A stretch of DNA of 64,000 bases from Clostridia bacterium (GTDB lineage: Bacteria > Bacillota > Clostridia > Oscillospirales > CAG-272): the NCBI GenBank assembly GCA_017463125.1, contig JAFTPV010000003.1, positions 93,190 to 157,189 on the forward strand, given 5' to 3'. Numbering within the stretch: position 1 is the first letter of the stretch; each line of letters begins with the position of its first letter. Below, piece after piece: positions 3,479 through 21,686 of this stretch. The translations under genes were made by a program, and so were the position numbers. A model generated the notes under the pieces. That model ran no database searches. It saw only the letters and a program-made list of their open reading frames with translations, and was not told the DNA's origin.

Positions 3479-5038
3479 TCAAAAATTCCAGTGAATTTCG
3501 ATAGGTACGTTTCGTGTCCCCGGAATACGCTTTCCGACCATGATTTTGTCGATCAAAATCTCCACCATTTCCCGTGTCAGATGCTCTACCTTGACGTATT
3601 TTTCGATCAATTCTCGGCGGTTGTCACCCACTGCAATTTTGACGTTTATCTCTGCAATTTGCTTTTGACATTCCAGCACCTGTGATTCAAGACGTTCTTT
3701 TTGCGAAGTGAAGTCCTTTGACAGCTCGATGAAATCTGCCTCACAAATCAAGCCCTTCACCTTGTCAAGATAAAGGTCACGTACGCCTTTGGAAAACTGA
3801 TTGATCTTGCCTTGATAGGTGGCGATTTCGGCTTCAATTTCTTGCTTTTGCTCCAAAAGATCAGCGTTAAACTGTACCTTGCGTTCCAACTCATCCATAT
3901 CAAGATATTCGGCATTGAGTCGCCGCAGTTCGTCAATCACCATTCTTTCAAGTCTGTTGACCGAAATAAACGCACCCTCGCAAGCACCCTTAGCGTAGTG
4001 TCGATTGGGGCATTGCAGGAAATGTCTGCCACCCGATTTTGACGAGCGCATGACGTATCCGCAGGACGCGCACCGCACCTTTTTGGCAAAAAGACCAATC
4101 GTACCGACCTTAAACGGCTTGGCTCGCTCGGCGATCATCTTCTGCACTCTGTCCCACAGGGTGCGGTCAATGATCGGCTCGTGAGTGCCTTCCACCCGAA
4201 ACCATTGTTCCTTGGGGCGTGGGCGGTTTATACTCGTTTTATACGAAATACTCTCGTATTTTCCTTGCACGAGATTGCCGATGTAGGTCTCGTTGGTCAG
4301 CATATCCGAAATGGCGAAATACTTCCACAGAGTGCTGTTCTTGCTCGGCGGCAGACTGAAACGAAGCCCCTGCATCCGCTTGTACTCGGTGGGGTTGGGT
4401 ATCCCTCGGTCGTTGAGCATTCGCGCGATCGCCGTCTTGCCGTAGCCTTGTGAAAAGAGGGTAAAGACCTCTCGCACCACGGCGGCGGCTTCCTCGTCGA
4501 TGATCAGATGACCTTTCAGGTCGGGATCCTTCTTGTAGCCGTAGAGCGCAAAGGAGCCGATGTGAAAGCCGTTTTTGCGGCGGCTGTCCAACGCAGATTT
4601 GATGCTATCCGACATATCCTCCAGATACCACTCGTTGACAAGACCGTTGATCTGACGGCTTTTTTTGTTGCCTTTGTTGGCAGTGTCGGCATTGTCCACA
4701 ATGCTGACGAAACGGATACCCCAAATCGGAAACAGACCGTGTATGTACCTCTCCACCAATTCAAGCTCACGGGTAAATCTCGATTGCGTTTTGCAGAGGA
4801 TAATGTCAAATTTTCTCGCCTGCGCATCGGCAAGTAACCGCTTGAACTCGGGACGGTTGCGATCCGAGCCTGCGTAGTCGTCGTCGCTGTAAATGCCGTA
4901 AAGCTCCCACCCCATGCGGTCGGCGTAGTCACGGAGCATCGCCTTTTGATTCTGAATACTGCCCGAATCATCGGTGGCGTTCTGCTTGTTTTTGTCCTCC
5001 TCGGACAGTCTGCAATAGATTGCTACTTTTTCTCTCAT
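3479..5038 (-). CDS. large serine recombinase (SpoIVCA/TndX-like)
   Basis: 519 aa. The N-terminal resolvase catalytic domain is AIYCRLSEED...SIQNQ. It also has a recombinase domain, a Cys-rich zinc ribbon (CASCGY...CPNRH) and a C-terminal coiled coil. It has the same orientation as cotJ. Confidence 0.9.
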   Translation of the reverse strand: MREKVAIYCRLSEEDKNKQNATDDSGSIQNQKAMLRDYADRMGWELYGIYSDDDYAGSDRNRPEFKRLLADAQARKFDIILCKTQSRFTRELELVERYIHGLFPIWGIRFVSIVDNADTANKGNKKSRQINGLVNEWYLEDMSDSIKSALDSRRKNGFHIGSFALYGYKKDPDLKGHLIIDEEAAAVVREVFTLFSQGYGKTAIARMLNDRGIPNPTEYKRMQGLRFSLPPSKNSTLWKYFAISDMLTNETYIGNLVQGKYESISYKTSINRPRPKEQWFRVEGTHEPIIDRTLWDRVQKMIAERAKPFKVGTIGLFAKKVRCASCGYVMRSSKSGGRHFLQCPNRHYAKGACEGAFISVNRLERMVIDELRRLNAEYLDMDELERKVQFNADLLEQKQEIEAEIATYQGKINQFSKGVRDLYLDKVKGLICEADFIELSKDFTSQKERLESQVLECQKQIAEINVKIAVGDNRRELIEKYVKVEHLTREMVEILIDKIMVGKRIPGTRNVPIEIHWNF

Positions 5039-5064
5039 GTTCTTATCTCCTCCACGATAAGAAC
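5039..5064 (-). promoter_or_regulatory. perfect 9-bp hairpin or palindrome abutting the recombinase start codon, with the SD in its loop
   Basis: The mRNA sense strand reads GUUCUUAUC-GUGGAGGA-GAUAAGAAC-AUG. Confidence 0.4.
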
Positions 5065-5108
5065 AAGCTGTTTTCTTGCCTTTATTTTACCATAAAAACG
5101 GCTGTTTT

Positions 5109-5270
5109 TCATTGATTTGGAGAAAAATTTACACTTTTTCTGCGTTCTAACGTTGAGATCAGTTTTAACCATATATTCGTGTAATCCTCCTTCGTCAAAA
5201 TTCCGCTCTTAAAAACACTTGTACAAATTTCGTTTTTCATATCATTTCTTTCGGCTTTTTCTTTTGCCAT
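5109..5270 (-). CDS. small hypothetical protein (53 aa) immediately upstream of the recombinase
   Basis: Hand translation gives MAKEKAERNDMKNEICTSVFKSGILTKEDYTNIWLKLISTLERRKSVNFSPNQ. GGGAGGA lies 7 nt upstream of the ATG. The ORF is below the length cutoff of the ORF track. Confidence 0.45.
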   Translation of the reverse strand: MAKEKAERNDMKNEICTSVFKSGILTKEDYTNIWLKLISTLERRKSVNFSPNQ

Positions 5271-5333
5271 AGCATTCCTCCCTTCGTTTTTGAAATAAAT
5301 ATATGAAAAATAGCAAGTCCGCTATTACAGCGT

Positions 5334-5472
5334 AGCACCCCGCACCGAGCCATTTCCTTTGCTCGCCTTTCGACCAAGTATGTCAGGCGGTACTGTGTAC
5401 GATTTCAGTTATGGGTGCGCTCATATCGTGGCGGCACTGTCCATAACGCCTGTATCACTCTCGGCTGGGGCT
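5334..5472. ncRNA. candidate structured RNA or leader (nested helices), orientation unknown
   Basis: Nested complementary segments: 5334-5349 with 5460-5472, 5384-5389 with 5447-5452, and 5409-5414 with 5441-5446, plus a local hairpin at 5390-5400. It lies in a 330-nt stretch with no convincing ORF. Confidence 0.25.
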
Positions 5473-5560
5473 ATTCAATTGGTGACGGACTTTTTTGTCC
5501 CTTCACCTATGAAATACGCCCGAGATTGCGATTTTCTGCAAAAAAGTTAAAAATTTTTTT

Positions 5561-5616
5561 GAAAAATTTAAAAACGCACCTTGTCGGCGGTAAAAATCCG
5601 CTTTCGGAGTGCGTTT
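5561..5616 (-). terminator. intrinsic terminator downstream of the oxidoreductase gene
   Basis: Stem aaacgcac/gtgcgttt with inner stem gcgg/ccgc, followed on the minus strand by a U-rich tract. Confidence 0.55.
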
Positions 5617-5626
5617 GAGAGTATAT

Positions 5627-6925
5627 TTACATCTTTTTGTCATCGGTTGCGGGGTTGTCGATAAGCTGACCGTCTTCAGTAAAGCGTGAGCCGTGGCAGG
5701 GGCAATCCCAAGTGTGTTCAGCTTTATTGTATTTGAGGGCACAGCCGAGGTGTGGGCATCGGGGTGCAGTGGGGGTAAAAATACCTACCGTCGATTCAAA
5801 AGCGTTGACGGCAAGCTGTGGGCGCAGGACGGTGCGCGATGGATCGAAAACGGCGGCGTAGGGACTGTTTTTGCCTTGCACAAGGTCGCAGAGAATATCG
5901 GCGGCGACCATAGCGTTTGTCATACCCCACTTGTTAAAGCCCGTCGCCACAAACACATCGGACGTGGACTTGGCGTACTGTCCGATATAGGGAACGTCGT
6001 CCAGCGTTATACAGTCCTGCGTTGCCCATTTGCCGACGATCTCGGCGTTTTTGTAGTGCTTGCGAGAAAAATCTTCAAGCTCTTGCCAACAGCCGCCCTC
6101 CTTGCCTGTGCGGTGTCCGCCACCACCGAGGAGCAGAAGGTCGCCGTAGCTTCGGAAGGATAGCCCCGAATCCGATTCGTCTACGTACATACCGCCGACG
6201 TTCTGAGCGTTTTTGAGAGCAATGACATAGGAACGGTGCTGATAGAGCTTTAAGGAATACAATCCGTGCTTGTTGAGCATCGGTAAATGGGTTGCGATAA
6301 TCAACTTTTTGTAGGTGATCTCGTCACGGTTGGTTTTCGCCTTGTTTGGCATTACTTCTGTGACCTTGGTATGCTCGTAGATTGGCAGATCTTTTGTGAT
6401 AGTGTATAGAAATTTCAATGGGTGAAACTGCGCTTGATCTTTGACGCACACTGCACCTGCGACAGAAAACGGAAGCTCTTTTGCATCCGAAAACTCGGCT
6501 TTGACACCGATACGGTTGAGTGCAGCTACTTCTTTTTCAATCTTCTTACGGTCATTGAGAGAATACACGTAGTTATCCCGTGTTTCAAAATCGCAGTCGA
6601 TATTCTCGCAAAATTGCGCGTACTCCTGAATTGCCTTGCTCTGCGCCTCCGCATACAACCGTGCCTTGTCCTCGCCAAAACGGCGAGTCATTTTATCGTA
6701 GATCAAACCGTGCCCCAAAGTGATCTTCGCCGTTGTATTCTTTGTAATGCCTTCACAGATTTCGTCTGCCTCCACGAGCATACAATCCACGCCCGCATTT
6801 TTGAGCTTATAGGCGCATAAAATCCCCGCAATCCCGCCGCCGATGATCAAAACGTCGGTCTTTTTATTCCCACCAAGCGCGTCAAACCGTGGCTTTGACG
6901 ATGTTTTTAACCATATTGAGTCCAT
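5627..6925 (-). CDS. FAD-dependent oxidoreductase with C-terminal Rieske 2Fe-2S domain
   Basis: N-terminal dinucleotide fold DVLIIGGGIAGILCAYKL. The C-terminal Rieske motif is CPHLGC...CPCHGSRF. Confidence 0.75.
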   Translation of the reverse strand: MDSIWLKTSSKPRFDALGGNKKTDVLIIGGGIAGILCAYKLKNAGVDCMLVEADEICEGITKNTTAKITLGHGLIYDKMTRRFGEDKARLYAEAQSKAIQEYAQFCENIDCDFETRDNYVYSLNDRKKIEKEVAALNRIGVKAEFSDAKELPFSVAGAVCVKDQAQFHPLKFLYTITKDLPIYEHTKVTEVMPNKAKTNRDEITYKKLIIATHLPMLNKHGLYSLKLYQHRSYVIALKNAQNVGGMYVDESDSGLSFRSYGDLLLLGGGGHRTGKEGGCWQELEDFSRKHYKNAEIVGKWATQDCITLDDVPYIGQYAKSTSDVFVATGFNKWGMTNAMVAADILCDLVQGKNSPYAAVFDPSRTVLRPQLAVNAFESTVGIFTPTAPRCPHLGCALKYNKAEHTWDCPCHGSRFTEDGQLIDNPATDDKKM

Positions 6926-7000
6926 AATCTATCCTCCGAATCTTAATAGGATTAGTGTTTACACGGAAACGAATAATATGTGTTAATTCGAGAGCTATTA

Positions 7001-7029
7001 TTTACTTTTGCATAGAAATGTGGTATAAT
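7001..7029 (+). promoter_or_regulatory. candidate sigma-A type promoter for the EEP gene
   Basis: TTTACT, 17 nt, then TATAAT preceded by an extended TG (tggTATAAT). Confidence 0.4.
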
Positions 7030-7062
7030 AAAAAATATAAAAACATCAAAGGAAGTCATAAC

Positions 7063-7848
7063 ATGAGAATAGTTAACTGGAATATATCATGGAGCAATAA
7101 AACAGACAATAAAGCCGCTTATTTAAGAAGTTTAATTGAGGGAAAGTCGTTTGTAATTATCTTGCAAGAAGTAAAAATGTTTGCTTATGAGGCATTAAAG
7201 CAGTCCTTGGGAGATATAGCTAATATTGAGTATTCGTTGGACTATCGTATTCCCGGCAAATTTGATATAGATTCAAGAAAACTTGGTGTTGCTATATTAG
7301 TAAGCAAAGACTTGAAGATTACAAATTCACAAGCATTGAGCCGAGCTCTTATGCCGGATAGAACAATAATGGTTGACATAGAGTACAATAATGAACCTTT
7401 GCGAATTTTGGGATTACATTCGGTGACGGGCTGTCACCACTTAAAAGCGAAGGAAATACAGTTTTTCTCCTTTGCAGAGGCAGTGGATGAGTACAAACCC
7501 GATGTTGTAGGTATAGATGCCAATGAGCCTCAGTATGACCATTATGAAATTAGCAAAATGAAATTTTTTGATAATTATAATAAGGGAAATGGATGCAAAA
7601 CATTTTTTGAAACAATGCAAGCCAACGGTATGGCTGATTCATTTGTAAAAGACTATGATATAGAAAAATACATAGAGGGTGAGTACCTTACAACATCTCA
7701 TATAATCAAACGAGGACACAAAAAGGTACGTTACGATTTTTTGTTTGTCAATAATGAGAAAATTCGTAATTACCATTGTTCCTATGACTATGACAATGCA
7801 GTTGAGGCTGGTAGCGACCACGCCGCAGTAATAGTAGATGTGGAATAA
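7063..7848 (+). CDS. endonuclease/exonuclease/phosphatase (EEP) family protein
   Basis: Begins MRIVNWNISW, has LQEV (catalytic Glu context) and GIDANEP, and ends with the SDH motif. The start was moved to the ATG at 7063. The gene is very AT-rich. Confidence 0.6.
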   Translation: MRIVNWNISWSNKTDNKAAYLRSLIEGKSFVIILQEVKMFAYEALKQSLGDIANIEYSLDYRIPGKFDIDSRKLGVAILVSKDLKITNSQALSRALMPDRTIMVDIEYNNEPLRILGLHSVTGCHHLKAKEIQFFSFAEAVDEYKPDVVGIDANEPQYDHYEISKMKFFDNYNKGNGCKTFFETMQANGMADSFVKDYDIEKYIEGEYLTTSHIIKRGHKKVRYDFLFVNNEKIRNYHCSYDYDNAVEAGSDHAAVIVDVE

Positions 7849-8065
7849 TCAATAACAAATAAAGGGGCTGAGCTTCTTGCTTTACTAAAATGCAGTTGAC
7901 TCATCCTTTTTATTTTGAAAAAAGTTTCGGCTAATTTATATAAATTCTTAAAAACAGCCGAAAAATGCTTTTAATTCTTTGCTTTTCGTATTTTTATACC
8001 TTCGACCATATATTCTCATTCGTTTTGGGAAATAATAACGGTGAATACAAAAAACGGAGGTATAT

Positions 8066-8728
8066 ATGTTCAAACACGAAAAAATGTTATTTCATCCCGT
8101 AGAGGTAGAGAGACCCAATCCGCAGTATGCCGTTTTGCTTCAAGAGCAGCTTGGCGGTGGGAACGGCGAGCTCAAGGCGGCAATGCAGTATATGTCGCAG
8201 AGTTTTCGCATCAAGGATCCCGAGATCAAGGATCTTTTCCTCGATATTGCCGCGGAGGAGCTGGGACACATGGAAATGGTGGCGCAGACCATCAATCTGC
8301 TCAACGGTCACGATGTGGATGCAACCAAGGTGCAGGCGGGCGAGGTGCAGACGCACGTTCTGCTTGGTCTCAATCCCGGACTGATCAATTCCTCGGGGTA
8401 TTCTTGGACGGCGGATTACGTTACCGTAACGGGCGACCTGTGCGCCGACTTGCTCTCTAATATCGCGTCCGAGCAGAGAGCCAAGGTGGTTTACGAATAT
8501 CTCTACCGTCAGATCGAGGACAAGAAGGTACGCGAAACTATAGACTTTCTTCTCAACCGCGAGGAAGCGCACAACCAGATGTTCCGTGATGCCTTTAACA
8601 AGGTACAGGAAACAGGCTCGAACCGCGATTTTGGCACGACGAAAGCGGCGAAGATGTATTTCTCTATGTCAAACCCCGGACCGAATACGTTTGCGACAGG
8701 TGAGAGTCACGCACCGTCGTTTAAGTAA
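8066..8728 (+). CDS. manganese catalase family protein (YdbD-like)
   Basis: MFKHEKMLFHPVEV...GGNGELKAAMQYMSQSF...AAEELGHMEMV...ASEQRAKVVYE...LNREEAHNQMF are the di-Mn ligand motifs of the family. GGAGG RBS present. Confidence 0.8.
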   Translation: MFKHEKMLFHPVEVERPNPQYAVLLQEQLGGGNGELKAAMQYMSQSFRIKDPEIKDLFLDIAAEELGHMEMVAQTINLLNGHDVDATKVQAGEVQTHVLLGLNPGLINSSGYSWTADYVTVTGDLCADLLSNIASEQRAKVVYEYLYRQIEDKKVRETIDFLLNREEAHNQMFRDAFNKVQETGSNRDFGTTKAAKMYFSMSNPGPNTFATGESHAPSFK

Positions 8729-8743
8729 CAGTAACGATGATAC

Positions 8744-8790
8744 GGCAGAGGCGGCGGACAAATCTTGTCCGCCGCCTCTGCCGTTTTTTA
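8744..8790 (+). terminator. intrinsic terminator after the Mn catalase gene
   Basis: 19-bp stem cggcagaggcggcggacaa/ttgtccgccgcctctgccg followed by TTTTTT. Confidence 0.85.
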
Positions 8791-8947
8791 CCCCACTTTT
8801 TTAAACTCGGGTAAGAAACCACATGCTGTTTATTCTGAAAGCCTTGTTTTGCAAGGAATTGAAAGCTTTTATGGGTGTCGTAAAAAAATATCGGAAAAAT
8901 GCAAAAAAGCCGATACTGATTTTAGGCTTATTTTTGATTTCCGGACA

Positions 8948-9142
8948 TTTGAGAAAACAGCTTGTCCTTATCGATTTTTTAATAAATTAAGCTAAATTTT
9001 GGTAAAATTAAGTGTTGTTGCTCTTATATGATATCAGGATGGCAATTTTTGAGCGTTTTGCCGAAGTGTGAAAAATCCTTGTATTTCAAGGCTTTTCGGC
9101 GTTTTTTTGATAAAGGTTGCTCTTGCAGTATTGCAGCATCTG
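8948..9142 (+). repeat. internal diverged copy of the element's right arm, ending in the TCTG core
   Basis: Aligns to 17110..17305 in direct orientation. My hand alignment gives about 14 substitutions over about 185 nt. The sequences diverge completely immediately after TCTG (9139..9142). Confidence 0.85.
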
Positions 9143-9262
9143 ACATATCTTCTATGAAGTCGGTACGCTTAAATTGTGGATTGGAATCACAGAAAAACGG
9201 AGGGGATAAACTCGCGTTAATGAGGATAAAATGACAAATAATTAAAAATTACCCTGGATAAC

Positions 9263-9291
9263 TTGACGTTATCTTAAAAACGTGCTATAAT
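9263..9291 (+). promoter_or_regulatory. strong sigma-A type promoter for the ATPase gene
   Basis: TTGACG, 17 nt, then TGcTATAAT (extended -10). Confidence 0.6.
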
Positions 9292-9320
9292 GTTGATGAA
9301 CCAAGAAAGGAGTACCTACG

Positions 9321-10562
9321 ATGAACAAAAAGATTTACACAAGACAGTATTATATTGATAAAATTCGTGGCTTTTATAACAGTGACCTTATTAAAGTAGT
9401 CACAGGTATCCGCCGTTGCGGTAAATCCTGCTTCCTTTTGTCTGTGATGGAAGATCTAAAATCCCAGGGCGTTAAGGAAAAAGACATTTTGTACCTCAAC
9501 CTCGATAAGCGCGGTTATCGTAAGATCAAAACGCCGGACGCACTTGAAGCTGCAGTTGAAACGCTAATTACCGATGACGATTATAAATATCTATTCATTG
9601 ACGAGGTGCAAAACGTAGACGGTTTTGAAGAGGTCATCAACGGATTCAGGGAAGACGGAAACTTTTCCATTTTTATCACCGGCTCCAATTCCTACCTTCT
9701 GAGCGGTGAGCTTACGACAAAGCTGACCGGTCGTTATATTGAAATCGAGATGTTTACCTTGAATTTTCGTGAATATCTTGAAATGAAATCATTTTTCGGC
9801 AATGAGATAAAATCCAATAAGACAGAAGAATTTAACGAGTATATCCGTTTTGGTGGTTTCCCTAAGGTACTTGAGTTTGACGACCCCAATGACAAAGATA
9901 CCTATATTTCGGAGGTTATTTCGCAAATTCTCGAAAAAGATGTTGTAAAGCACAAAAAGATTCGCAACCGTTCGGTATTCGATAAGGTTATGACCTACGT
10001 GATCAATAACTTTGGCGCAACGGTGAGCCTTTCAAGCATTGCGGAATATTTTGAAAAGCAAGAGCATATCAGTATTCGAACCGAGACGCTCAATAATTAT
10101 TTGCAGATTCTTGAAAACGCGAAGATCATATACAGATGTCCGCGCTTCGATGTGAAATCAAAAAAGTCCTTGCGCGGAGAGCAGAAATATTATCTTGCAG
10201 ATCTCGGTATCTATTTCTCTCGCAATGTGGACGCGCGTATCAACTATGGTCCCGTGCTTGAAAATATCGTATATACCTATCTGTCTGCAAAGAATTATAA
10301 GATCAGCGTCGGTCGCATCGGCAAGCTGGAGTGCGATTTTATTACCCGTGTAAGCGACGAGTACAGATATATCCAAGTGGCAATGACGATTATGAGTCCC
10401 GAGACCGAGGAACGCGAATACAAGCCTTTCACTATGATACGGGATAATTACCCCAAATATCTGCTTACCATCGATCCACTGCTCCAAAAGCGTGATGGTG
10501 TGATACACAAAAATATTATTGAGTTCATTGCAAATGATGAAAGCTTGTCATCAGTGGTTTGA
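9321..10562 (+). CDS. AAA-type ATPase with C-terminal DUF4143-like domain
   Basis: Walker A GIRRCGKS and Walker B LFIDEVQ, followed by about 200 aa typical of the ATP-binding protein family AAA_14/DUF4143. Confidence 0.7.
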   Translation: MNKKIYTRQYYIDKIRGFYNSDLIKVVTGIRRCGKSCFLLSVMEDLKSQGVKEKDILYLNLDKRGYRKIKTPDALEAAVETLITDDDYKYLFIDEVQNVDGFEEVINGFREDGNFSIFITGSNSYLLSGELTTKLTGRYIEIEMFTLNFREYLEMKSFFGNEIKSNKTEEFNEYIRFGGFPKVLEFDDPNDKDTYISEVISQILEKDVVKHKKIRNRSVFDKVMTYVINNFGATVSLSSIAEYFEKQEHISIRTETLNNYLQILENAKIIYRCPRFDVKSKKSLRGEQKYYLADLGIYFSRNVDARINYGPVLENIVYTYLSAKNYKISVGRIGKLECDFITRVSDEYRYIQVAMTIMSPETEEREYKPFTMIRDNYPKYLLTIDPLLQKRDGVIHKNIIEFIANDESLSSVV

Positions 10563-10568
10563 TAAAAC

Positions 10569-10682
10569 AAAAAAGACCTCCGAAGAGGTCAATTTTGCAC
10601 ACACTGTGCGATCGGACAATCCGACGATTTGAGAATTCTTTTATTTGAACTCGTAGTGTAATTTATAAGGGATATAAACTAC
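10569..10682 (-). ncRNA. tracrRNA
   Basis: The minus-strand sequence UCCCUUAUAAAUUACACUACGAGUUCAAA pairs with the CRISPR repeat GUUUGAGAGUAGUGUAAUUUUAUAAGGGA, with the usual internal bulge. Three hairpins follow (TCGGA/TCCGA, GCACA/TGUGC, GACCUC-UUCG-GAGGUC) and then UUUUUU. A consensus promoter lies upstream. Confidence 0.8.
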
Positions 10683-10688
10683 ACTTGT

Positions 10689-10717
10689 ATTATAATACAA
10701 AAAGGAGTAATTGTCAA
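10689..10717 (-). promoter_or_regulatory. consensus sigma-A promoter driving the tracrRNA, overlapping the cas9 translation initiation region
   Basis: On the minus strand TTGACA (10717..10712), 17 nt, then TATAAT (10694..10689). The cas9 ATG is at 10719. Confidence 0.65.
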
Positions 10718-10718
10718 T

Positions 10719-13700
10719 ATGAAAAAACAAAATTATTTCATTGGACTTGATATAGGAACTGATTCCGTTGGTTATGCGGTGACAGACGAGGAATATAATT
10801 TGTGCAAATTTAAGGGCGAACCTATGTGGGGAGTGACCCTTTTCGATGAAGCGCAGCTTTCCGTGGAGCGCAGAGGCTTCCGTACAGCTCGTAGGCGTTT
10901 AGATCGCAGACAGCAACGTGTTCAATTGATACAAGAGCTATTTGCACAAGAAATCAACAAGGTTGACAAAGGTTTTTTTATAAGAATAAAGGAAAGCTAT
11001 CTCTATCCCCAAAAAGAGGAGGACAAGATACGTTTATTTGATACGTATGAAATGCAAAAAGAATACTTAACGAAGTATCCGACGATCCATCACCTTATCG
11101 TGGAATTGATGGAAAATGCAGTTCCACACGACGTAAGACTGGTGTATCTTGCCTGTGCCTGGTTGGTAGCTCACAGGGGGCACTTCCTGAGCGAGGTGGA
11201 CAAGCATAATATTGCTGCGGTTACCGATTTCAAAACTGTTTATGAAAAGCTTGTAAGCTATATTACACGTGATGAATATACTTTGCCATGGAAAACAGAT
11301 GTGGATCTCGAAGTAATTCAAAATGCTTTGAAGGCTAAATCAGGAATTCAAAGGAAGTCAAAAGCATTAACGGAAGCATTTTTTGGTACAGTGAAGGCTC
11401 CGAAGATCGTTAATGAGCATTATGAATATAATTATGAATGTATTATTAAATTACTGTGCGGCGGCAAGGTTAATTTAAGTGATTTGTTCGCAAAGGATGA
11501 ATATGCCGAACTTGAAGAAAAGGCTATTGCTTTGAATATGGACGATGAAAAGCTTGTAGCTATTATGCAAAGTATCGGTGACGATGCCGAGCTGATCTCT
11601 GCGTTGAAGGAGATTTACGACTGGTCCGTATTGGTTGACGTATTGAAGGGGCAGGATACCATTTCCAAAGCCAAGGTTGCAGTTTACGAGCAGCACAAGC
11701 GCGATTTGACCACCTTGAAATATTTTGTGAAAAAATATGCACCGAGTAAATATAACGAAATTTTTCGATCTGACAAGACAAATAACAACTACGTAGCCTA
11801 CATAGGAAAGAATCAAACGGGGAATGACAGTCGGAAGGTAAAGAAGGCAGGCAAAAAAGAAGAACTTTGCAAGTATGTTCTTTCTGTCGTTAAAAGCATT
11901 CTTCCGGACGAAAGTGATTTGGAAAAATACAGCGATATGGTCACTCGATTGGAAACGTACGACTTTCTTCCCAAGCAGGTGGACGGGGACAACCGAGTGA
12001 TTCCGTATCAGCTATATTGGTATGAGCTGAACATAATTCTTGAAAATGCCGAGCGTTACATCCCGTTTATTTCCGAAGTTGATGAAGACGGCATTTCGGG
12101 TAAAAATAAAATACTGTCGGTATTTGAATTCAGAGTTCCTTATTACGTAGGACCGCTGAAAGGAAAAAGCAATTGCAGATACAATTATTGGATGGTCAGA
12201 AAAGCAGAGGGAAGGATTTTTCCGTGGAAGTTTAATAGAATGGTCGATCTTGACGAAAGCGAAAATGCCTTTATTGCAAGAATGACAAATTCTTGTACGT
12301 ACCTGCCAGGGGAAGACGTGCTTCCCAAGAACTCGCTTGTCTACTGCTCGTTTGAGGTGCTGAATGAGATAAACAATATCAGAATCAATGGTAACGAAAT
12401 TCCTGTTGTTTTAAAACAAGGAATATACAACGATTTGTTTATGCGAAACAGCAAGGTTACGCCGAAGAAAATTTGCGAATACCTCATTTCCAACAATTAT
12501 ATGTGTGAATCCGATGTCTTGTCTGGAATTGATATCACGGTAAAATCATCACTCAAGCCGTTTTTGCAGTTTAAAAATCTTGTAAACAGGAAGATGCTGA
12601 CCTATACCGATGTTGAGAAAATTATCCACAGAGCCACCTATTCCGAGGATAAAGCAAGATTTAAAAAATGGCTCAGTGAACAGTATTCCGACCTTCCCGA
12701 GAGCGAAATCACTTATATTTCCGGTTTGAAGTTCAAGGATTTTGGAAGGCTATCCCGAAAGCTTTTGTGCGGTATTGAGGGCGTGAATACGCAAACAGGC
12801 GAAGTTTATTCCTCAATCATTCGCGCTATGTGGGAAACCAATTATAACCTGATGCAACTTTTATCCGACAACTTTAATTTCGAGAAAAGCATAGACGAAA
12901 TCGTTAGAGAATATTATGATGTAAATCCCAAAAGCATTTCGGATAGGCTTGACGAAATGTACGTTTCCAATGCAGTCAAACGTCCTATTATCCGTACTCT
13001 TGATATTTTAAAGGATGTTGTTAAGGTGCAAGGATGCGCGCCCGAAAGAATCTTTATTGAAATGGCGCGCGGTACAAGTGAGGGGCAAAAAGGCAAGCGA
13101 ACGGTTACACGTCTCAAACAGATTCAGGAACTGTACGAAAAAGTCAAAGATGAGGATGTTCGTGAACTGCAAAGCGTTCTTGATGAATGGGGTGATGCGG
13201 CACATAATAAGCTGCAAAGCGATAAGATTTTCCTGTATTTTATTCAGCTTGGTAAGTGCTTGTATACCGAAAAAAGCATTGATTTGGAATCGGTTATTTC
13301 CGGCGACGGTACCTATAATATTGAACACATATATCCCCGTAGCTTTGTAAAAGACGATAGCATTATCAACAACAAGATTCTCGTCGATTCAAAAGTGAAC
13401 GGAGATAAGAGCGACAAGTATCCGATTGATCCTGATATTCAGGAAAAAATGCGTGGATATTGGATTCGCTTGAATAAGATTGGCTTGATCAGTGATGAAA
13501 AATTCAAACGCCTGATAAGAACGACAGGCTTTACAGAAGAAGAAAGATTTGAATTTATCAACCGTCAGCTTGTTGAAACAAGACAATCAACCAAAGCCGT
13601 GACGGCATTGTTGAAAGAACTGTATCCCAATACGGAAATCGTTTACGTAAAGGCGGGGCTGGTTTCGGAATTCAGACAGACGTTCGATATTTTGAAATCC

Positions 13701-14807
13701 AGAGCAGTGAACGATCTTCATCACGCAAAGGATGCGTATTTGAATATCGTTGTTGGTAACGTATGGCATTCCAAATTCAGCAGACCGTTTTGGAATGCAG
13801 ATAAAAATTACAGTATCAGACCTGAAATTGTGTTTACTCGCTCCGTTATATGCGGTGGCAAAACGGTTTGGAACGGCGGTTCCGATAAAGATCGCGTAAT
13901 CAAGATTGCAAGAAAAAACACAGCGCATATGACGAAATATTCCTTCTGCCGCAAGGGGGGATTCTTTGACCAGATGCCAATTTCGGCATCAAAAGGATTG
14001 ATTCCTCGCAAGAAGGATATGCCTACGGAAATTTACGGTGGATATAACAAGTCAACTGCTTCCTTCTTTGCTTTGGTAAGATATAAGGTTGCGAAAAAGC
14101 AGGATATTATGGTAATGCCCGTAGAACTGTTATATGCAGATCATTTTCTTGGTAACGGTACGTTTGCCGAGGAATATGCAAGAAAGACCATCGGAGAGAT
14201 TATCAATAAGGAAGTGGTTGAAGTGGAATTTCTTTTGAACAAGCGTATTCTGAAGGTTAATACAATGCTATCCTTGAACGGATTGAGGGTATGCATAACA
14301 GGAAAGGCGAGCGGCGGAAAGGTTATCGGAGTTTCTGTTATGGATTCTTTCAAAACGTCTGCCGATAACGAGGTGTATATTAAAAAGCTGGAATCCTTCA
14401 AAAATAAGAAAAAGAAGAATTCCGGTATCGTTTACAATGAATTGCACGATGGCATCAATAAAAACAAAAATCTTGAAATATATGACTGCTATATCGAAAA
14501 GCTACAGCAAGCACCGTATAGTTACCGTCCCGCTAATCCTGCCAATACGCTACTAACAGGCAGGGAAAAATTCATTACTTTAACTTGTGAAAATCAAGTG
14601 GACGTATTATTGGACGTTTTAGGTTTGTTTGGTAGAATACAAAGTGCGGATCTGACTCCAATTGGTGGAGTTGCAAAAGCAGGCGTCGCAACACTGTCAT
14701 CAATGCTTTCCAACTGGAAAAAGAATTATACCGACATTCGTATAATTGACCAATCAGCCTCGGGACTTTTTGAAACGGTTTCCGATAATCTTTTGGAATT
14801 GTTATGA
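10719..14807 (+). CDS. cas9: type II CRISPR endonuclease Cas9 (1362 aa)
   Basis: RuvC-I IGLDIGTDSVGYAV, an Arg-rich bridge helix RRGFRTARRRLDRRQQR, an HNH region YNIEHIYPRS...NKILVDSKVNGDKSD, and RuvC-III HHAKDAYLN. Confidence 0.95.
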   Translation: MKKQNYFIGLDIGTDSVGYAVTDEEYNLCKFKGEPMWGVTLFDEAQLSVERRGFRTARRRLDRRQQRVQLIQELFAQEINKVDKGFFIRIKESYLYPQKEEDKIRLFDTYEMQKEYLTKYPTIHHLIVELMENAVPHDVRLVYLACAWLVAHRGHFLSEVDKHNIAAVTDFKTVYEKLVSYITRDEYTLPWKTDVDLEVIQNALKAKSGIQRKSKALTEAFFGTVKAPKIVNEHYEYNYECIIKLLCGGKVNLSDLFAKDEYAELEEKAIALNMDDEKLVAIMQSIGDDAELISALKEIYDWSVLVDVLKGQDTISKAKVAVYEQHKRDLTTLKYFVKKYAPSKYNEIFRSDKTNNNYVAYIGKNQTGNDSRKVKKAGKKEELCKYVLSVVKSILPDESDLEKYSDMVTRLETYDFLPKQVDGDNRVIPYQLYWYELNIILENAERYIPFISEVDEDGISGKNKILSVFEFRVPYYVGPLKGKSNCRYNYWMVRKAEGRIFPWKFNRMVDLDESENAFIARMTNSCTYLPGEDVLPKNSLVYCSFEVLNEINNIRINGNEIPVVLKQGIYNDLFMRNSKVTPKKICEYLISNNYMCESDVLSGIDITVKSSLKPFLQFKNLVNRKMLTYTDVEKIIHRATYSEDKARFKKWLSEQYSDLPESEITYISGLKFKDFGRLSRKLLCGIEGVNTQTGEVYSSIIRAMWETNYNLMQLLSDNFNFEKSIDEIVREYYDVNPKSISDRLDEMYVSNAVKRPIIRTLDILKDVVKVQGCAPERIFIEMARGTSEGQKGKRTVTRLKQIQELYEKVKDEDVRELQSVLDEWGDAAHNKLQSDKIFLYFIQLGKCLYTEKSIDLESVISGDGTYNIEHIYPRSFVKDDSIINNKILVDSKVNGDKSDKYPIDPDIQEKMRGYWIRLNKIGLISDEKFKRLIRTTGFTEEERFEFINRQLVETRQSTKAVTALLKELYPNTEIVYVKAGLVSEFRQTFDILKSRAVNDLHHAKDAYLNIVVGNVWHSKFSRPFWNADKNYSIRPEIVFTRSVICGGKTVWNGGSDKDRVIKIARKNTAHMTKYSFCRKGGFFDQMPISASKGLIPRKKDMPTEIYGGYNKSTASFFALVRYKVAKKQDIMVMPVELLYADHFLGNGTFAEEYARKTIGEIINKEVVEVEFLLNKRILKVNTMLSLNGLRVCITGKASGGKVIGVSVMDSFKTSADNEVYIKKLESFKNKKKKNSGIVYNELHDGINKNKNLEIYDCYIEKLQQAPYSYRPANPANTLLTGREKFITLTCENQVDVLLDVLGLFGRIQSADLTPIGGVAKAGVATLSSMLSNWKKNYTDIRIIDQSASGLFETVSDNLLELL

Positions 14808-15673
14808 GCTGGAGGACGATCGTTATAACGTCACGCTGCAAGCTGGATTATAAGATGGGCTTTATGGTGGTGCGCGCCGAGGAAACAAAAAAGATTTTTT
14901 TGGATGAGATTGCCGTATTGCTCATCGAGAATCCTGCCGTATCACTGACCGGTTGTTTGTTGGAGGTCTTAACAGAAAAGAAGATACGGGTGATTTTTTG
15001 TGATGCAAAGCGAAATCCCAACGCCGAGCTTGTGCCATATTTCAATTCTTATGATTGCTCCCGCAAAATCAAGGTTCAAATTGCTTGGTCAGATGATTTG
15101 AAGGGAGCAGTCTGGGCGGATATCGTTGCGGAGAAAATACGAAAGCAAGCGGATTTTCTTGAAGAACTTGAAAAAATTAATGAAGCGGGTCTTTTACGCT
15201 CCTATTTATATCAAATAGAACCTCACGATATCACGAATCGAGAGGGACACGCCGCAAAGGTTTATTTCAACGCGCTTTTTGGAATGGATTTTACAAGAAG
15301 TGAGGAGAATATCACTAACGCCGCACTGAATTATGGGTACAGCATTATTTTGTCGGCATTCAATCGTGAGATCGTAGCTCACGGGTATCTGACGCAGCTT
15401 GGGATTTTTCACGATAATATGTTCAATCATTTTAATCTGAGCTGTGATTTGATGGAGCCGTTTCGTATTTTGGTTGATCGTAAGGTGAAGGAAATGAATT
15501 TTACCGATTTTACAAGCGAGGAAAAACATATACTTGTAAACGTTCTGAATAAAACCGTTATGATCAATCAAACCAAGCAAACGGTGTTAAATGCAGTTAA
15601 ATATTATACCAGAAGCGTTTTCGACGCATTAAACGAGGGCGATCTTTCGCTTATACAATTTTATTCATTATGA
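14804..15673 (+). CDS. cas1: CRISPR-associated endonuclease Cas1 (type II)
   Basis: Motifs NREGHAAKVYF, NAALNYGYSI and FHDN...CDLMEPFR. The start overlaps the cas9 stop (ATGA). Confidence 0.95.
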   Translation: MSWRTIVITSRCKLDYKMGFMVVRAEETKKIFLDEIAVLLIENPAVSLTGCLLEVLTEKKIRVIFCDAKRNPNAELVPYFNSYDCSRKIKVQIAWSDDLKGAVWADIVAEKIRKQADFLEELEKINEAGLLRSYLYQIEPHDITNREGHAAKVYFNALFGMDFTRSEENITNAALNYGYSIILSAFNREIVAHGYLTQLGIFHDNMFNHFNLSCDLMEPFRILVDRKVKEMNFTDFTSEEKHILVNVLNKTVMINQTKQTVLNAVKYYTRSVFDALNEGDLSLIQFYSL

Positions 15674-15990
15674 GTTACAGATTTATAAGAATGTTGGTAT
15701 TTTTTGATCTTCCCACCGAAACGCTTGAAAACAAGCGCGAGTATAGAAAATTTCACAAACTACTCATTAAGAACGGCTTTTTGATGATGCAGGAATCCGT
15801 GTATTGCCGTATGCTGATTACGCCAAGTGCGGGTAAGGCGGTTTTGGACGTGATACGCAAAAACCGCCCCGCAGACGGCATTGTGCAAGTTATGACCGTG
15901 ACTGAAAAGCAATTTGCTGGGATGGAATATATTACGGGAGAGCATCACAGCGAGGTGATAGAAAGTGACGAGAGGTTGATTATATTATGA
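15670..15990 (+). CDS. cas2: CRISPR-associated endoribonuclease Cas2
   Basis: 106 aa. Begins MLVFFDLPTE and contains QESVY. It overlaps the cas1 stop and the csn2 start by 4 nt each. Confidence 0.9.
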   Translation: MSYRFIRMLVFFDLPTETLENKREYRKFHKLLIKNGFLMMQESVYCRMLITPSAGKAVLDVIRKNRPADGIVQVMTVTEKQFAGMEYITGEHHSEVIESDERLIIL

Positions 15991-16652
15991 AACTGATATA
16001 TAAGAATATGGGGCATGTTTTGCGTTTTGATAAAGGATATATCAATGAGCTCGTTGTTGAAAACAGAAAAATGTTTCTTGACCTCGTAAGCACTATGATA
16101 CGTCAGGCAGAGGGCGAACACGGAGACTGTATATTATCAATAGCGGAAAAACCGGTGGAGTTTAGCAAATGTGCGGACGTTACCGTACAGTTTGCGCCGT
16201 TTCAGCTCAATCGCAAAAGCTTACTGACAAAGCTTTGCTCCGCATTAGAGCAAAGGGCTCTGCTTGCGGAAAATTACGTAAAAACAGGAGAATTGGTTAG
16301 TGAAATAGAGCGATATATTCTGTATCTTGCCGAGGATCTTCCGTTTGAAATCGATTGTCAAAAGCTTACGATAGGCCCAATTATCAAGGCAGTATCACCT
16401 GAGATCGAGGAAGCCGATAAGGGTACATTGGAGAAAATATTTGCATATATGGAGCTTGTGCGTGAGTTGGATCGTGATCGCTTGTTTATTATGATCAATA
16501 TGAGAACGTATTTTTCGGATGAAGAAATGGAACGATTTGCGGAAAGTGTCTGCTTACATGATTTCAAGGTTCTTTTGCTGGAAAGCTCATCTCTTTCAAA
16601 ATTAAAACACTCAAAAAGATATACGGTGGATGTTGACTTGTGCGAATTTTGA
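15987..16652 (+). CDS. csn2: Csn2 (type II-A signature adaptation protein)
   Basis: 221 aa, in the canonical position after cas2 and directly before the leader and array. The size and acidic, helical character fit short Csn2. No motif-level proof without a search. Confidence 0.7.
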   Translation: MKLIYKNMGHVLRFDKGYINELVVENRKMFLDLVSTMIRQAEGEHGDCILSIAEKPVEFSKCADVTVQFAPFQLNRKSLLTKLCSALEQRALLAENYVKTGELVSEIERYILYLAEDLPFEIDCQKLTIGPIIKAVSPEIEEADKGTLEKIFAYMELVRELDRDRLFIMINMRTYFSDEEMERFAESVCLHDFKVLLLESSSLSKLKHSKRYTVDVDLCEF

Positions 16653-16653
16653 C

Positions 16654-16682
16654 TTGATTTTTCTTGTTAATTGTGATATAAT
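16654..16682 (+). promoter_or_regulatory. pre-crRNA promoter in the CRISPR leader
   Basis: TTGATT, 17 nt, then TGaTATAAT (extended -10), about 70 nt upstream of repeat 1. Confidence 0.6.
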
Positions 16683-16750
16683 ATAAGCTACCACTCCCTG
16701 TACATTGCTCTCTGCAATTCGTAGTATTGTTGCTCAAATGTTGATTTGAG

Positions 16751-17050
16751 GTTTGAGAGTAGTGTAATTTTATAAGGGACTCAAACCAGAAGAAAGTGAG
16801 TTACAATCACCAAAAGGTTTGAGAGTAGTGTAATTTTATAAGGGACTCAAACTTTTGCGTTAAAATCTTCAACGCTACCACCGTTTGAGAGTAGTGTAAT
16901 TTTATAAGGGACTCAAACTCTTAGCATAACGAAAAGAAAGAACAGTATGTTTGAGAGTAGTGTAATTTTATAAGGGACTCAAACTTTTTTGCGCCTTGCT
17001 ATTATTGCACCATCGTTTGAGAGTAGTGTAATTTTATAAGGGACTACATT
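16751..17050 (+). CRISPR. CRISPR array with 5 repeats and 4 spacers
   Basis: The 36-nt repeat GTTTGAGAGTAGTGTAATTTTATAAGGGACTCAAAC occurs at 16751, 16817, 16883, 16949 and 17015. The last copy is degenerate at its 3' end (..GGGACTACATT). Spacers are exactly 30 nt. The leader ends in ATTTGAG. Confidence 0.97.
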
Positions 17051-17073
17051 TTCTTGACAATTCCAAAATAAAA

Positions 17074-17106
17074 AACGATGCACCGTACTTTGGGGCATCG
17101 TTTTTC
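17074..17106 (+). terminator. intrinsic terminator after the CRISPR array
   Basis: Stem acgatgc/gcatcgt followed by TTTTT. Confidence 0.6.
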
Positions 17107-17109
17107 TAT

Positions 17110-17305
17110 ATTTGGAGAAACAGCTTGTCCTTATCGATTTTTTAATAAATTAAGCTAAATTTTGGTAAAATTACGTGTTGTTGCTCTTATATGATAGCAG
17201 GGTGGCGATTTTTGAGCGTTTTGCCGAAGTGCGAAAAATCCTTGTATTTCAAGGGGTTTCGGCGATTTTTCAATAAAGGTTGCATTTGCGTTATTGCAGC
17301 ATCTG
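17110..17305 (+). repeat. right arm of the element (attachment-site arm) ending in the TCTG core at the cotJC junction
   Basis: Direct-repeat partner of 8948..9142. It contains GGTTGC 18 nt from the core, mirrored by GCAAC 16 nt from the core in the left arm. Confidence 0.85.
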
Positions 17306-17708
17306 CCGCGAGGTCCTCGTGAATATCGGCAAGGGGATCACCTTTGGAGGCTATTGCCATAGCGTCAAAGGGCACGCCTGCCGCCGAGCAGGGATAGATA
17401 CCTACGCCGTGATCAACGTAGTATTTATCAAAGCCCGCTGCTTTTATTTCATCATGGGTAAGGTTTCTGGTAAGCTGATGGACGATAGAGGCCACGATCT
17501 CCATGTGCCCAAGCTCCTCACTGCCTACGTCCGTTAATATACCTATCACTCTGCCATCGGGCATATTATATCTTTGGTTGAGGTAACGGGTAGCCGCAGC
17601 GAGCTCGCCGTCAGGTCCTCCAAGTGCTGTGATTATCATACCTGCAAGCTTGGGGTTGGGGGTTTCTATCTTTACAGGATATTGCAATTTTTTCTCGTAT
17701 ATCCACAT
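17302..17708 (-). pseudogene. cotJC: cotJC 5' fragment (N-terminal 135 codons of the manganese-catalase-family spore coat protein)
   Basis: MWIYEKKLQYPVKIETPNPKLAGMIITALGGPDGELAAATRYLNQRY...SEELGHMEIV...DIHEDLAA is near-identical in pattern to B. subtilis and C. difficile CotJC. After the junction the frame reads element DNA for 38 codons, to a stop at 17187. Confidence 0.85.
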
Positions 17709-17709
17709 A

Positions 17710-18009
17710 TTAGTTCATTCCTCCCTGACGATTATTCGGTGCGCCGTTACCCATCTGCCAAGGCCAAGGCTCGTTTACCCAACTCCAGCCCTTAGTCGTA
17801 TCGGTGCCTATTGCGGTGAGGGGCCCGGTCGTGCCCTCGTACTCCTCGACAAGATCCTTTAGCTCTTCTACGGTTTTATAATAGTAGTCAAGAGCCGCGC
17901 AGCAGTCGGGGTGAGTGTCAAGATAAAGCTCAAGCTCGGTTTTCACAAAGCTCAAGGCGCGGATTTTTTCAAGTAAGGGAGTATCTGCTCCCATCATTCG
18001 ATTATTCAT
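17710..18009 (-). CDS. cotJB: spore coat protein CotJB
   Basis: Contains LLEKIRALSFVKTELELYLDTHPD and the C-terminal PWPWQ motif. The ATG overlaps the cotJA stop (ATGAATAA). Confidence 0.85.
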   Translation of the reverse strand: MNNRMMGADTPLLEKIRALSFVKTELELYLDTHPDCCAALDYYYKTVEELKDLVEEYEGTTGPLTAIGTDTTKGWSWVNEPWPWQMGNGAPNNRQGGMN

Positions 18010-18322
18010 TACCGTAGACCTCCATCGGCTTGTATAACTGCTCGAAAAGTGTGCCGTGAGCAAGGGCGTCAGGAGCCGAATACAGCATACAGAATTTTTG
18101 ACTGGGTGCGTATAGGTACGCGGGTTTGAAATTATCTACGCAGCTTCCGCCGCCACAACCGCAGCCACCCTCGGTGACTCCGCCAACGGTGCCGCCATTT
18201 CCGTTACTGTTACCGTTACCGCCGGGAGTCACAGGAGCACTGTTGTTAAAGGTGGGGGCAAAGCCCGCAGCAGCCATCTGTGCGCATCTATCGGTCGGAT
18301 AACCGTTTTCATTCTTTCTCAT
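18002..18322 (-). CDS. cotJA: spore coat-associated protein CotJA
   Basis: The C-terminal pattern YLYAPSQKFCMLYSAPDALAHGTLFEQLYKP matches the CotJA family. It is first in the operon. The start was chosen at MRKNENG (18322). Confidence 0.7.
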   Translation of the reverse strand: MRKNENGYPTDRCAQMAAAGFAPTFNNSAPVTPGGNGNSNGNGGTVGGVTEGGCGCGGGSCVDNFKPAYLYAPSQKFCMLYSAPDALAHGTLFEQLYKPMEVYGNE

Positions 18323-18437
18323 TTGTTCTGTCCTTTTGTTTTTTGTGGTGCTATACGCCACTACAACCATTATATGCCTAACTCATAAAGCTGTGAATAT
18401 TTTTCGACAATATGCAACTGTAACGGCAAAAAAGCAC

Positions 18438-21520: not shown

Positions 21521-21680
21521 TGTTTCACCTCCATAAAAAATCAATAAAAAACATCCTTTTCCGCAAAAGGCATACTACCTCCGAGAAAAAGGACAACTAA
21601 AATACAAAAAATATTTAAGTTTTCTTCACCTCGGCAGGAAAGCTACGCGCTTTTACCGGAACCTGCTGTCTTAGGATACC
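21521..21680 (-). promoter_or_regulatory. rplJ 5' leader (L10-leader-type autoregulatory attenuator)
   Basis: About 160-nt untranslated leader between a consensus promoter and rplJ. It ends in the terminator-like hairpin CCUUUU-GCGG-AAAAGG plus a U-run (21545..21570). Assignment to the L10 leader family is by position and architecture only. Confidence 0.55.
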
Positions 21681-21686
21681 TATGGT

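Follow-up and report, generated by a model that had tools for sequence, protein, structure and literature searches.

A composite large serine recombinase element carrying a type II-A CRISPR-Cas9 locus interrupts the coat gene cotJC in a Clostridia bacterium

Results

A 13.9 kb insertion splits cotJC

The stretch of DNA analysed here (hereafter the window) comprises 64,000 nucleotides from a Clostridia bacterium of the Oscillospirales lineage CAG-272 (assembly GCA_017463125.1, contig JAFTPV010000003.1, forward-strand positions 93,190 to 157,189). The host, an uncultured gut Clostridium, is Oscillospiraceae/Ruminococcaceae-like. The window carries a complete, intact-looking type II-A CRISPR-Cas9 locus, which lies within an insertion that interrupts the coat gene cotJC. 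The 5' fragment of cotJC, codons 1-135, runs from 17708 to 17302 on the minus strand and matches positions 1-151 of the Pfam Mn_catalase profile; the 3' fragment, codons 136-183 plus the stop codon, runs from 3382 to 3234 on the same strand and matches positions 147-196. The 5' open reading frame (ORF) follows CotJC to ...HEDLAAD and then continues for 38 foreign codons of the element, down to 17187, and in the ORF that contains the 3' fragment (3482 to 3234) CotJC sequence begins at ...EQKARAMY and runs to the stop. Because cotJB (17710-18009, minus strand) lies directly upstream of the 5' piece and cotJA (18002-18370, minus strand) beside cotJB, both being recognised by Pfam, we conclude that the split gene is the cotJC of the coat operon.

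Each fragment ends at a short crossover core, TCTG on the plus strand and CAGA on the gene strand, at 3379-3382 (attR) and 17302-17305 (attL). On the gene strand attL reads GCGGCAGA|TGCTGCAATAACG and attR reads GTAACAGA|GCAAAAGGCG. When the halves are joined at CAGA they give a CotJC of 183 aa that is colinear from end to end with intact CotJCs of 83-93% identity; in an alignment with these proteins, EDLAAEQKARAMY is invariant across the joint. In a sister species (L030-L032; CotJC 89% identical) cotJC is uninterrupted and syntenic, the 13.9 kb being wholly absent, and the empty site, attB, reads GCGGCAGA|GCAAAAGG and shares the CAGA core with attL and attR. The sister order, SHMT, DUF4416, cotJA, cotJB, cotJC and DHODB Fe-S protein, is that of the window's flanks; two genes of the left flank, AraC and Gfo/Idh, are absent from the sister synteny.

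The complementary halves of cotJC and the empty sister site lead us to conclude that the entire 13,923 bp between codons 135 and 136, including the cas locus, is an insertion. An earlier note on this DNA, made from the letters alone, had placed the tracrRNA, cas genes, leader and array inside an element, and all of them do indeed lie between the two halves of cotJC. The situation that would have contradicted it, a chromosomal cas locus beside a smaller insertion, is not what we find: the cotJC halves flank the cas genes and the sister site is empty.

The insert carries an intact-looking type II-A CRISPR-Cas9 locus

By its gene content the locus is an ordinary type II-A CRISPR-Cas system, cas9-cas1-cas2-csn2 with a trans-activating CRISPR RNA (tracrRNA), leader and array, all of them intact-looking. 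On the plus strand, cas9 (10719-14807; 1362 aa; Pfam Cas9_REC, Cas9_PI, HNH_4, Cas9_RuvC and Cas9-BH) is followed by cas1 (14804-15673; PF01867), cas2 (15670-15990; PF09827) and csn2 (15987-16652), the type II-A signature gene. The product of csn2 matches PF09711 (2.7e-24) and, over its full length (residues 1-221), the PADLOC Csn2 models (1.1e-63). All four ORFs are full length, and consecutive ones share 4-nt overlaps in which stop and start codons overlap.

The catalytic motifs of Cas9 can be read in its sequence: RuvC-I (IGLDIGTDS), RuvC-II (IEMARG), HNH (NIEHIYPRS...N) and RuvC-III (HHAKDAYLN). Each aligns with its counterpart in FrCas9 (Faecalibaculum rodentium, 9JWK), the closest solved structure, which matches the window protein colinearly over residues 2-1359 (725 bits). 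SpCas9 aligns only over residues 1-1022, implying that the domain that interacts with the protospacer-adjacent motif (PAM) diverges. The closest relative among species-representative genomes is 76% identical. To judge from these comparisons, the protein is a distinct FrCas9-like orthologue of SpCas9 size.

Upstream of cas9 is a gene for an AAA_14/DUF4143 ATPase (9321-10562, plus strand; promoter 9263-9291), a full-length match to the PADLOC candidate defence gene PDC-S01 (6.6e-143). Between it and cas9 we identified a putative tracrRNA of ~114 nt (~10682 to 10569, minus strand), with a perfect TTGACA-17-TATAAT promoter at 10717-10689 on the same strand. It consists of an anti-repeat and, 3' of it, three hairpins, the last of which is the terminator. 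The anti-repeat/repeat duplex has an in silico energy of -31.3 kcal/mol, compared with -10.5 +/- 2.8 for shuffled sequences; there was no Rfam match at the gathering threshold. On the other side of the operon, the leader (16653-16750, plus strand), which is conserved in L022 and L024, the relatives of the locus described below, contains the promoter TTGATT-17-TATAAT with an upstream TG (16654-16682). The array that follows (16751-17050, plus strand) has five 36-nt repeats (GTTTGAGAGTAGTGTAATTTTATAAGGGACTCAAAC), starting at 16751, 16817, 16883, 16949 and 17015, and four 30-nt spacers, giving a 66-nt period; the 5 nt that close the last repeat are degenerate. In such a system Cas1, Cas2 and Csn2 would serve adaptation, and the tracrRNA and array would each be driven from their own promoter.

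Much of this had been anticipated by the earlier note, which described a type II-A set at 9143-17305 with intact RuvC and HNH motifs, a Csn2 homologue as the fourth gene, an array with a promoter and a degenerate terminal repeat, and a Cas9 that might be an uncharacterised orthologue. The Pfam and PADLOC matches, the anti-repeat pairing, the array itself and the distance of this Cas9 from FrCas9 and SpCas9 bear that description out. The search for spacer targets that the note had proposed, which we ran on phage and plasmid databases, was less rewarding, yielding neither a target nor a PAM. The four spacers have no second match inside the window. Against GenBank phages they gave only a chance-level 22/23-nt match (E = 2), and against PLSDB plasmids nothing. 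A 3'-seed search in IMG/VR returned one 21/30 match between a low-complexity spacer and an unrelated viral contig, which we judged to be chance. The 74 spacers of related arrays found no protospacer in GenBank phages, and no PAM could be inferred from them. No relatives of the Cas9 were found in IMG/VR.

The insert is a composite of two units

A 196-nt direct repeat has copies at 8947-9142 (copy L) and 17110-17305 (copy R), both on the plus strand and 91% identical; the interval 9143-17305 corresponds exactly to its period. Both copies stop exactly at a crossover core: copy L at 9142, with an inner TCTG at 9139-9142, and copy R at 17305, with the TCTG of attL. The opposite end of the insert, which we call P (3383-3478, minus strand), includes a 52-nt hairpin (3412-3463) that recurs in both copies. 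A counterpart of copy L, ~193 nt long, forms the cotJC-5'-side end of L115, a cas-less sibling element whose recombinase is 92% identical, and the end homologous to copy R, with the same junction, is found in L022, a locus in another species. Since the copies end at the core and the same end recurs in L115 and L022, the repeat represents the P' end of this family of elements.

The insert is thus composite, made up of an autonomous, cotJC-specific large serine recombinase (LSR) element, E1, and a recombinase-less cas cassette, E2, each with its own P' end. E1 (3383-9138; 5.8 kb) contains the LSR gene, a 53-aa ORF, a FAD/Rieske oxidoreductase, an endonuclease/exonuclease/phosphatase-family (EEP) protein and a paralogue of the Mn-catalase. 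E2 (9143-17301; 8.2 kb) contains the PDC-S01 ATPase, tracrRNA, cas operon, leader and array; because the ATPase is a PDC-S01 candidate, E2 would be a cassette of two defence systems. The coincidence of the duplication boundary with the crossover core implies that the inner joint was made by site-specific recombination. We weighed two other origins for the repeat, homologous recombination and random duplication, and rejected them because both copies end exactly at the core. The GC content is 0.40 in E2, 0.45 in E1 and 0.45-0.47 in the flanks.

The cargo of E1 starts with the FAD-dependent oxidoreductase, which has a C-terminal Rieske domain (5627-6925, minus strand). It also adjoins the recombinase in the closest sibling elements, L013, L014, L033 and L115; their remaining cargo varies. 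Next come the EEP protein (6955-7848, plus strand), which has a weak Pfam match, and the second Mn-catalase (8066-8728, plus strand), a CotJC paralogue ~32% identical to the 5' 134 codons of cotJC, which might replace or complement the interrupted coat protein. As the earlier note had observed, no phage structural or conjugation genes are present among the element ORFs scanned. In PHROG the only matches were to integrase/invertase and came from the LSR, none being to capsid, tail, terminase or lysis genes; neither the ATPase nor the EEP protein nor the small ORF had a match.

Two further features of the ends deserve mention. Within each P' copy (~8997-9022 and ~17160-17185) is a relic arm, GTTGTTGCTCTTATATGATAGCAGG, resembling the human-gut-type arm AAGTTGTTCTTATATGATTGCAGCA; judged by sequence, the resemblance points to previous insertions at that end. 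There is also an arm-like motif, AACAGCTTGT(T/C)CTTATCG, which occurs at 5038-5076, overlapping a hairpin in which the recombinase gene's ribosome-binding site and start codon are sequestered, and recurs inverted at the distal end of both P' copies (8952-8973 and 17118-17136). It may be an autoregulatory or accessory binding site. Beyond the insert, the chromosomal context to the right of the cotJ operon includes a ribosomal protein L10 leader (Rfam RF00557, 53 bits; 21538-21693, minus strand) upstream of rplJ-rplL.

A small ORF with a SigE-like promoter precedes the recombinase gene

The LSR gene (3479-5038, minus strand) lies at the cotJC-3' end of the insert, with its stop codon 97 nt from the att core. 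It encodes a 519-aa protein with the Pfam domains Resolvase, Recombinase, Zn_ribbon_recom and DUF4368 and a PHROG integrase match; the databases hold no identical record. Upstream of the gene is an extended -10-like element, TGGTAAAAT (5084-5092, minus strand), whose form in the family is TGnTA(T/A)AAT. Just upstream again is the 53-aa ORF (5109-5270, minus strand), which is conserved in a family alignment (A4) and present in L008, L013, L014, L116 and L117. It matched no family in Pfam, PADLOC or PHROG; we know of no fold that recombination directionality factors have in common. This ORF is in turn preceded by a SigE-like promoter, TAATAGC-15-CATATATT (5327-5298, minus strand), with an ATA-type -35. 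The -10 sequence CATA(C/T)A.T upstream of the small ORF is kept in 8 of 10 aligned family members, and a -10 of this type fits the textbook consensus of SigE-type, mother-cell promoters.

This layout, with an extended -10 at the recombinase gene and a SigE-like promoter at the small ORF, mirrors that of the skin element of C. difficile, in which a constitutive recombinase is combined with a directionality factor under sporulation control (PMC5025042; PMC5595907, discussion). By this analogy, the 53-aa ORF is a candidate recombination directionality factor.

cotJC is a multi-site hotspot for serine recombinase elements

A metagenome scan with the LSR recovered 80 loci (L033-L112) with recombinases of 73-86% identity. 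In 70 of them the recombinase gene adjoins a cotJC fragment that ends at codon 134/135, the position interrupted in the window. Half of these 70 loci (35) have the recombinase beside the 3' part of cotJC, as in the window, and the other 35 have it beside the 5' part, in the opposite orientation. The att arms of the family are near-palindromic imperfect inverted repeats, TTGCAGCA-GA-TGCTGCAA; the two orientations are explained by the central dinucleotide, which on the recombinase strand is either GA or TC. We had considered that the 35 loci at the 5' fragment might be inversion switches, but dropped this idea: with near-palindromic arms and TC in place of GA, they are insertions in the opposite orientation.

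The same gene is hit elsewhere. Further insertions occur at codon ~30 (L045, L049, L082, L100, L103, L107, L108 and L111) and at codons ~61-65 (L068, L076, L081, L085, L091, L102, L104, L021 and L025), the latter site being associated with a second recombinase family of 25-27% identity, and some cotJC genes hold two insertions simultaneously. cotJC is therefore a multi-site hotspot for LSR elements in gut Clostridia. None of the 80 loci contains cas genes, including the 24 with at least 5.7 kb of element interior, implying that CRISPR-Cas is a rare cargo of this family. At a further locus (L015, 1-9400), a recombinase of 86% identity lies at the cotJC 3' fragment, with LacI, GH32, PfkB and ABC-transporter genes ahead of it; elements of this family may also carry sugar-utilisation genes.

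Related cas loci lie near cotJC in other species

The earlier note had suggested surveying related genomes for cas genes at cotJC. Using the Cas9 to scan species-representative genomes, we obtained 14 loci, ~10 of them with usable flanks, and in 4 of these ~10 informative relatives (L021, L022, L024 and L025), as in the window, cotJC does lie within 3 kb of the cas locus.

The closest parallel is L022, in another species, whose CotJC is 60% identical and whose neighbouring genes are an alanine symporter and groES. Its architecture is that of the window: its cas operon encodes a Cas9 76% and a Cas1 88% identical to those described here, it has the same leader, and its P' end (83-85% nucleotide identity) meets cotJC at the same codon (AAD|AAITQ). 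The presence of a cas-plus-P' unit at the same codon in a different species, with different neighbours, implies that this unit has moved between species. In L021 (11193-14517) and L024 (5743-9145), array or cas remnants directly follow the 3' end of cotJC, beyond the gene itself, and ordinary chromosomal, housekeeping genes occupy the other side of the cas locus. No single history that we could construct leads from this arrangement to that of the window.

The fourth case is the isolate Lachnospira hominis NSJ-43 (L025; NZ_JACOPD010000001.1, 7255-17417), whose Cas9 is 38% identical. Here a different recombinase (25% identical) abuts codons 1-65 of cotJC; the cas operon and array come next, and then codons 65 to the end of cotJC on the opposite strand. 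The inverted halves of cotJC thus surround cotJB, cotJA and a full type II-A locus with ~14-15 repeats, and the arms other than cotJC form an attP-like dyad, CATAAGTGTGCAGA-TTC-ATATGCCCACTCATG. Read from this sequence, reconstitution of cotJC would need inversion of the 8.2-kb cas-bearing segment rather than excision. The left half of the arrangement recurs in an independent assembly (L114).

The cas-cotJC cases thus comprise three architectures and two recombinase families that are only 25% identical. The simplest reading of the linkage is a hotspot effect combined with a mobile cas cassette. A bolder idea is that type II-A cassettes of gut Clostridia, far from being chance passengers, are recurrently coupled to recombinase-controlled cotJC rearrangement, by excision here and by inversion in L. 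hominis, gaining a safe harbour at a sporulation-gated site, inheritance through the spore and a satellite's hitch-hiking. We regard this as rather improbable. If true, a coupled cassette would leave or flip only in the terminal mother cell, and could travel from species to species as a satellite, itself devoid of a recombinase, of cotJC-specific recombinase elements.

Discussion

How might this composite behave? E1 and E2 would have been joined by LSR-catalysed recombination at the crossover core, through either tandem accretion or capture at an existing att site. The outer sites, attL (cotJC-5'|P' copy R) and attR (P|cotJC-3'), would then act as a canonical excision pair. In the mother cell, the SigE-like promoter would drive expression of the 53-aa ORF, the candidate directionality factor; together with the LSR this would excise the whole composite, including the Cas9 system, and restore the 183-aa CotJC, while the forespore genome would retain the element. 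The predicted excision junctions are GACCTCGCGGCAGAGCAAAAGGCGAGAGC for attB and GATAGTAACAGATGCTGCAATAACGC for attP. The sequences show the anatomy, the boundaries, the empty site, the composite structure and the spread across species; we infer when excision happens, what the 53-aa ORF does, that the composite leaves as a single piece and that the CRISPR system interferes, and we think it likely overall that this cotJC insertion, E1 plus E2, is removed whole in the mother cell through the outer att pair.

Several observations weigh against this proposal. The databases contain no intact CotJC that equals the predicted protein (the best is 93% identical), neither IMG/VR nor any of the fetched loci contains the predicted attP, and every same-species contig carries the element, with none containing excision products. 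The assignment of the promoter of the 53-aa ORF to the SigE type is a consensus match only. At the inner junction, the arm on the E2 side (arm X, 9143-9170) has no homology to the P arm or its hairpin, and copy R of the P' end differs from copy L at 4 of the first ~25 core-proximal positions, which makes it questionable whether the E1 recombinase recognises copy R. As for the CRISPR system, the array is short, with four spacers, and is identical in independent samples; its spacers have no protospacers in GenBank phages, PLSDB or IMG/VR; the CRISPR remnant of L022 is a single degenerate repeat; and in L024, where cotJC is intact, cas9 and cas1 are deletion remnants accompanied by a single repeat.

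Some of these points would fit a scenario in which E1 alone excises, so that E2 is stranded, cotJC stays inactive for good and the Cas9 locus is in effect a fixed part of the chromosome. There is a complete P' end at the inner junction beside E1, arm X is not P-like, copy R is unlike copy L near the core, and the Mn-catalase paralogue of E1 might make cotJC dispensable. Nevertheless, X|P' and attR would not be a canonical attL and attR pair, since X is neither B-like nor P-like, and the dyad symmetry of copy R with the P arm, as read from the junction sequences, is no worse than that of copy L (15 versus 13 of 24 positions). Moreover, both cotJC fragments are undecayed, the 3' part equalling close intact orthologues across EQKARAMYDAILRLSDDPDVNDAIKFLRQREVVHFQRFGEAM, and a second species (L022) has the cas-plus-P' unit at this very codon. 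These considerations make stranding of E2 quite improbable in our view. It is also unlikely, we think, that this is a general integrative element for which cotJC is a mere landing pad, its excision being independent of sporulation and devoid of any germ-line/soma logic. Such an element would be compatible with a permissive target, hit at no fewer than three codons, in both orientations and by two or more recombinase families, and with the inverted halves in Lachnospira hominis, where the cas locus would stay. But the SigE-type -10 is conserved across the family upstream of the operon of the small ORF and LSR, the halves of interrupted cotJC genes are intact in many species, which speaks for selection on reconstitution, and excision tied to sporulation is known for skin, SPbeta, vfbin and gin (PMC5595907, PMC4191935).

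A different question is whether the CRISPR-Cas9 locus, for all its intact look, is an inactive relic that neither acquires spacers nor interferes. The four spacers shared by independent samples, the lack of targets in the databases searched and the decay of the related loci L022 and L024 are all consistent with this. On the other hand, the four cas ORFs are full length with stop/start overlaps, the catalytic motifs are conserved, and consensus promoters are still present for the tracrRNA and the array. Furthermore, other relatives hold arrays of 8-37 repeats with diverse spacers, and the absence of matches carries little weight because the phages of an uncultured host are missing from the databases. 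We therefore doubt that the locus is a relic. Finally, the composite could in principle be an assembly chimera formed across the 196-nt repeat, and short-read contigs (L005, L006 and L008) do break inside the repeat copies. However, the E1-E2 joint is found in independent assemblies (L001/L003, L004 and L002). Contigs of different samples (L001/L003 and L004) span both copies with unique flanking sequence, running from E1-specific sequence or copy L through the ATPase, cas genes, array and copy R into cotJC, cotJB, cotJA and SHMT, and L008 spans the left flank and E1, including the stretch from the Mn-catalase to copy L, as far as that copy. An assembly artefact is accordingly extremely improbable, and a composite insertion that is excised whole in the mother cell is the interpretation that we favour.

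If excision is indeed specific to the mother cell, the germ line would retain an adaptive immune system that the soma discards. The locus also extends the cargo of sporulation-gene elements, from phage remnants, restriction-modification systems and orphan CRISPR arrays to a whole Cas9 system, and shows a route by which Cas9 loci pass between Clostridia without phage or conjugation genes of their own. In addition, every cotJC recombinase brings its own natural attB/attP pair as well as a candidate directionality factor, parts that are useful for genome engineering.

How does this element compare with known systems? LSR-excised elements in sporulation genes include skin in sigK, SPbeta in spsM, vfbin, gin in gerE and yin in yabG (PMC5595907, PMC4191935, PMC5025042, PMC10747680). 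As in these, a mother-cell sporulation gene is precisely interrupted and the LSR gene lies at one end; the short core, the imperfect inverted repeats and the small upstream ORF as a directionality candidate are also skin-like. Like gin, which carries restriction-modification defence genes, the element has non-phage content. It differs from skin-type elements in its target, cotJC, in its cargo of type II-A CRISPR-Cas9 and PDC-S01, and in its two-unit structure with a duplicated end. The only precedent that we found for an interrupted cotJC is a skin-like element in Laceyella sacchari that Galperin et al. (bioRxiv 10.1101/2022.02.25.481979) note in a single sentence and in a supplementary table; it belongs to the class Bacilli, and no cas cargo is reported for it.

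CRISPR content has also been described in such a setting. The skin element and prophages of C. difficile contain type I-B arrays only: the skin element has an array but lacks cas genes, and no prophage array is reported to have an associated cas operon (PMC4556805). That skin element is likewise sigK-intervening and excised by a serine recombinase, but in the window the effector, adaptation genes and tracrRNA travel with the array. With FrCas9 (PDB 9JWK; PMC12926199) and SpCas9 the system shares a II-A Cas9 of SpCas9 size, its domain order, a csn2-type operon, 36-nt repeat and 30-nt spacers.

A second type of comparison is with cassettes that move complete CRISPR-Cas systems. The SCCmec cassette of S. 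aureus is such a case, being, like the insert in cotJC, a non-phage, non-conjugative island with a complete CRISPR-Cas system. SCCmec integrates in orfX/rlmH, and its excising enzymes are the Ccr large serine recombinases. Its CRISPR-Cas system, which is excised with the cassette, is of type III-A (PMC10434264); the site is not a sporulation gene, and no developmental gene is reconstituted. The statement of the earlier note that CRISPR-Cas on an LSR-excised element is unusual therefore holds for this family, with no case among 80 related loci, but needs to be tempered by the SCCmec precedent.

The composite structure, too, has a possible counterpart, in the accretion of cis-mobilizable elements (CIMEs). 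Accretion as described for CIMEs involves mostly tyrosine integrases and long identical cores. Like a CIME, E2 lacks a recombinase, has an att-type P' end and stands in tandem with an autonomous element, E1, in the same target; it also carries defence cargo. The enzyme here is an LSR with a 2-bp crossover, and arm X of the inner site is not recognisably att-like. Site-specific accretion and CIMEs have been reviewed (PMC5704250), and defence systems are known from chromosomally integrated mobile elements (PMC10201445). Overall, each ingredient of this locus is known; what is new is a self-sufficient Cas9 system that forms a recombinase-less unit, with an end of its own, in an element intervening in cotJC.

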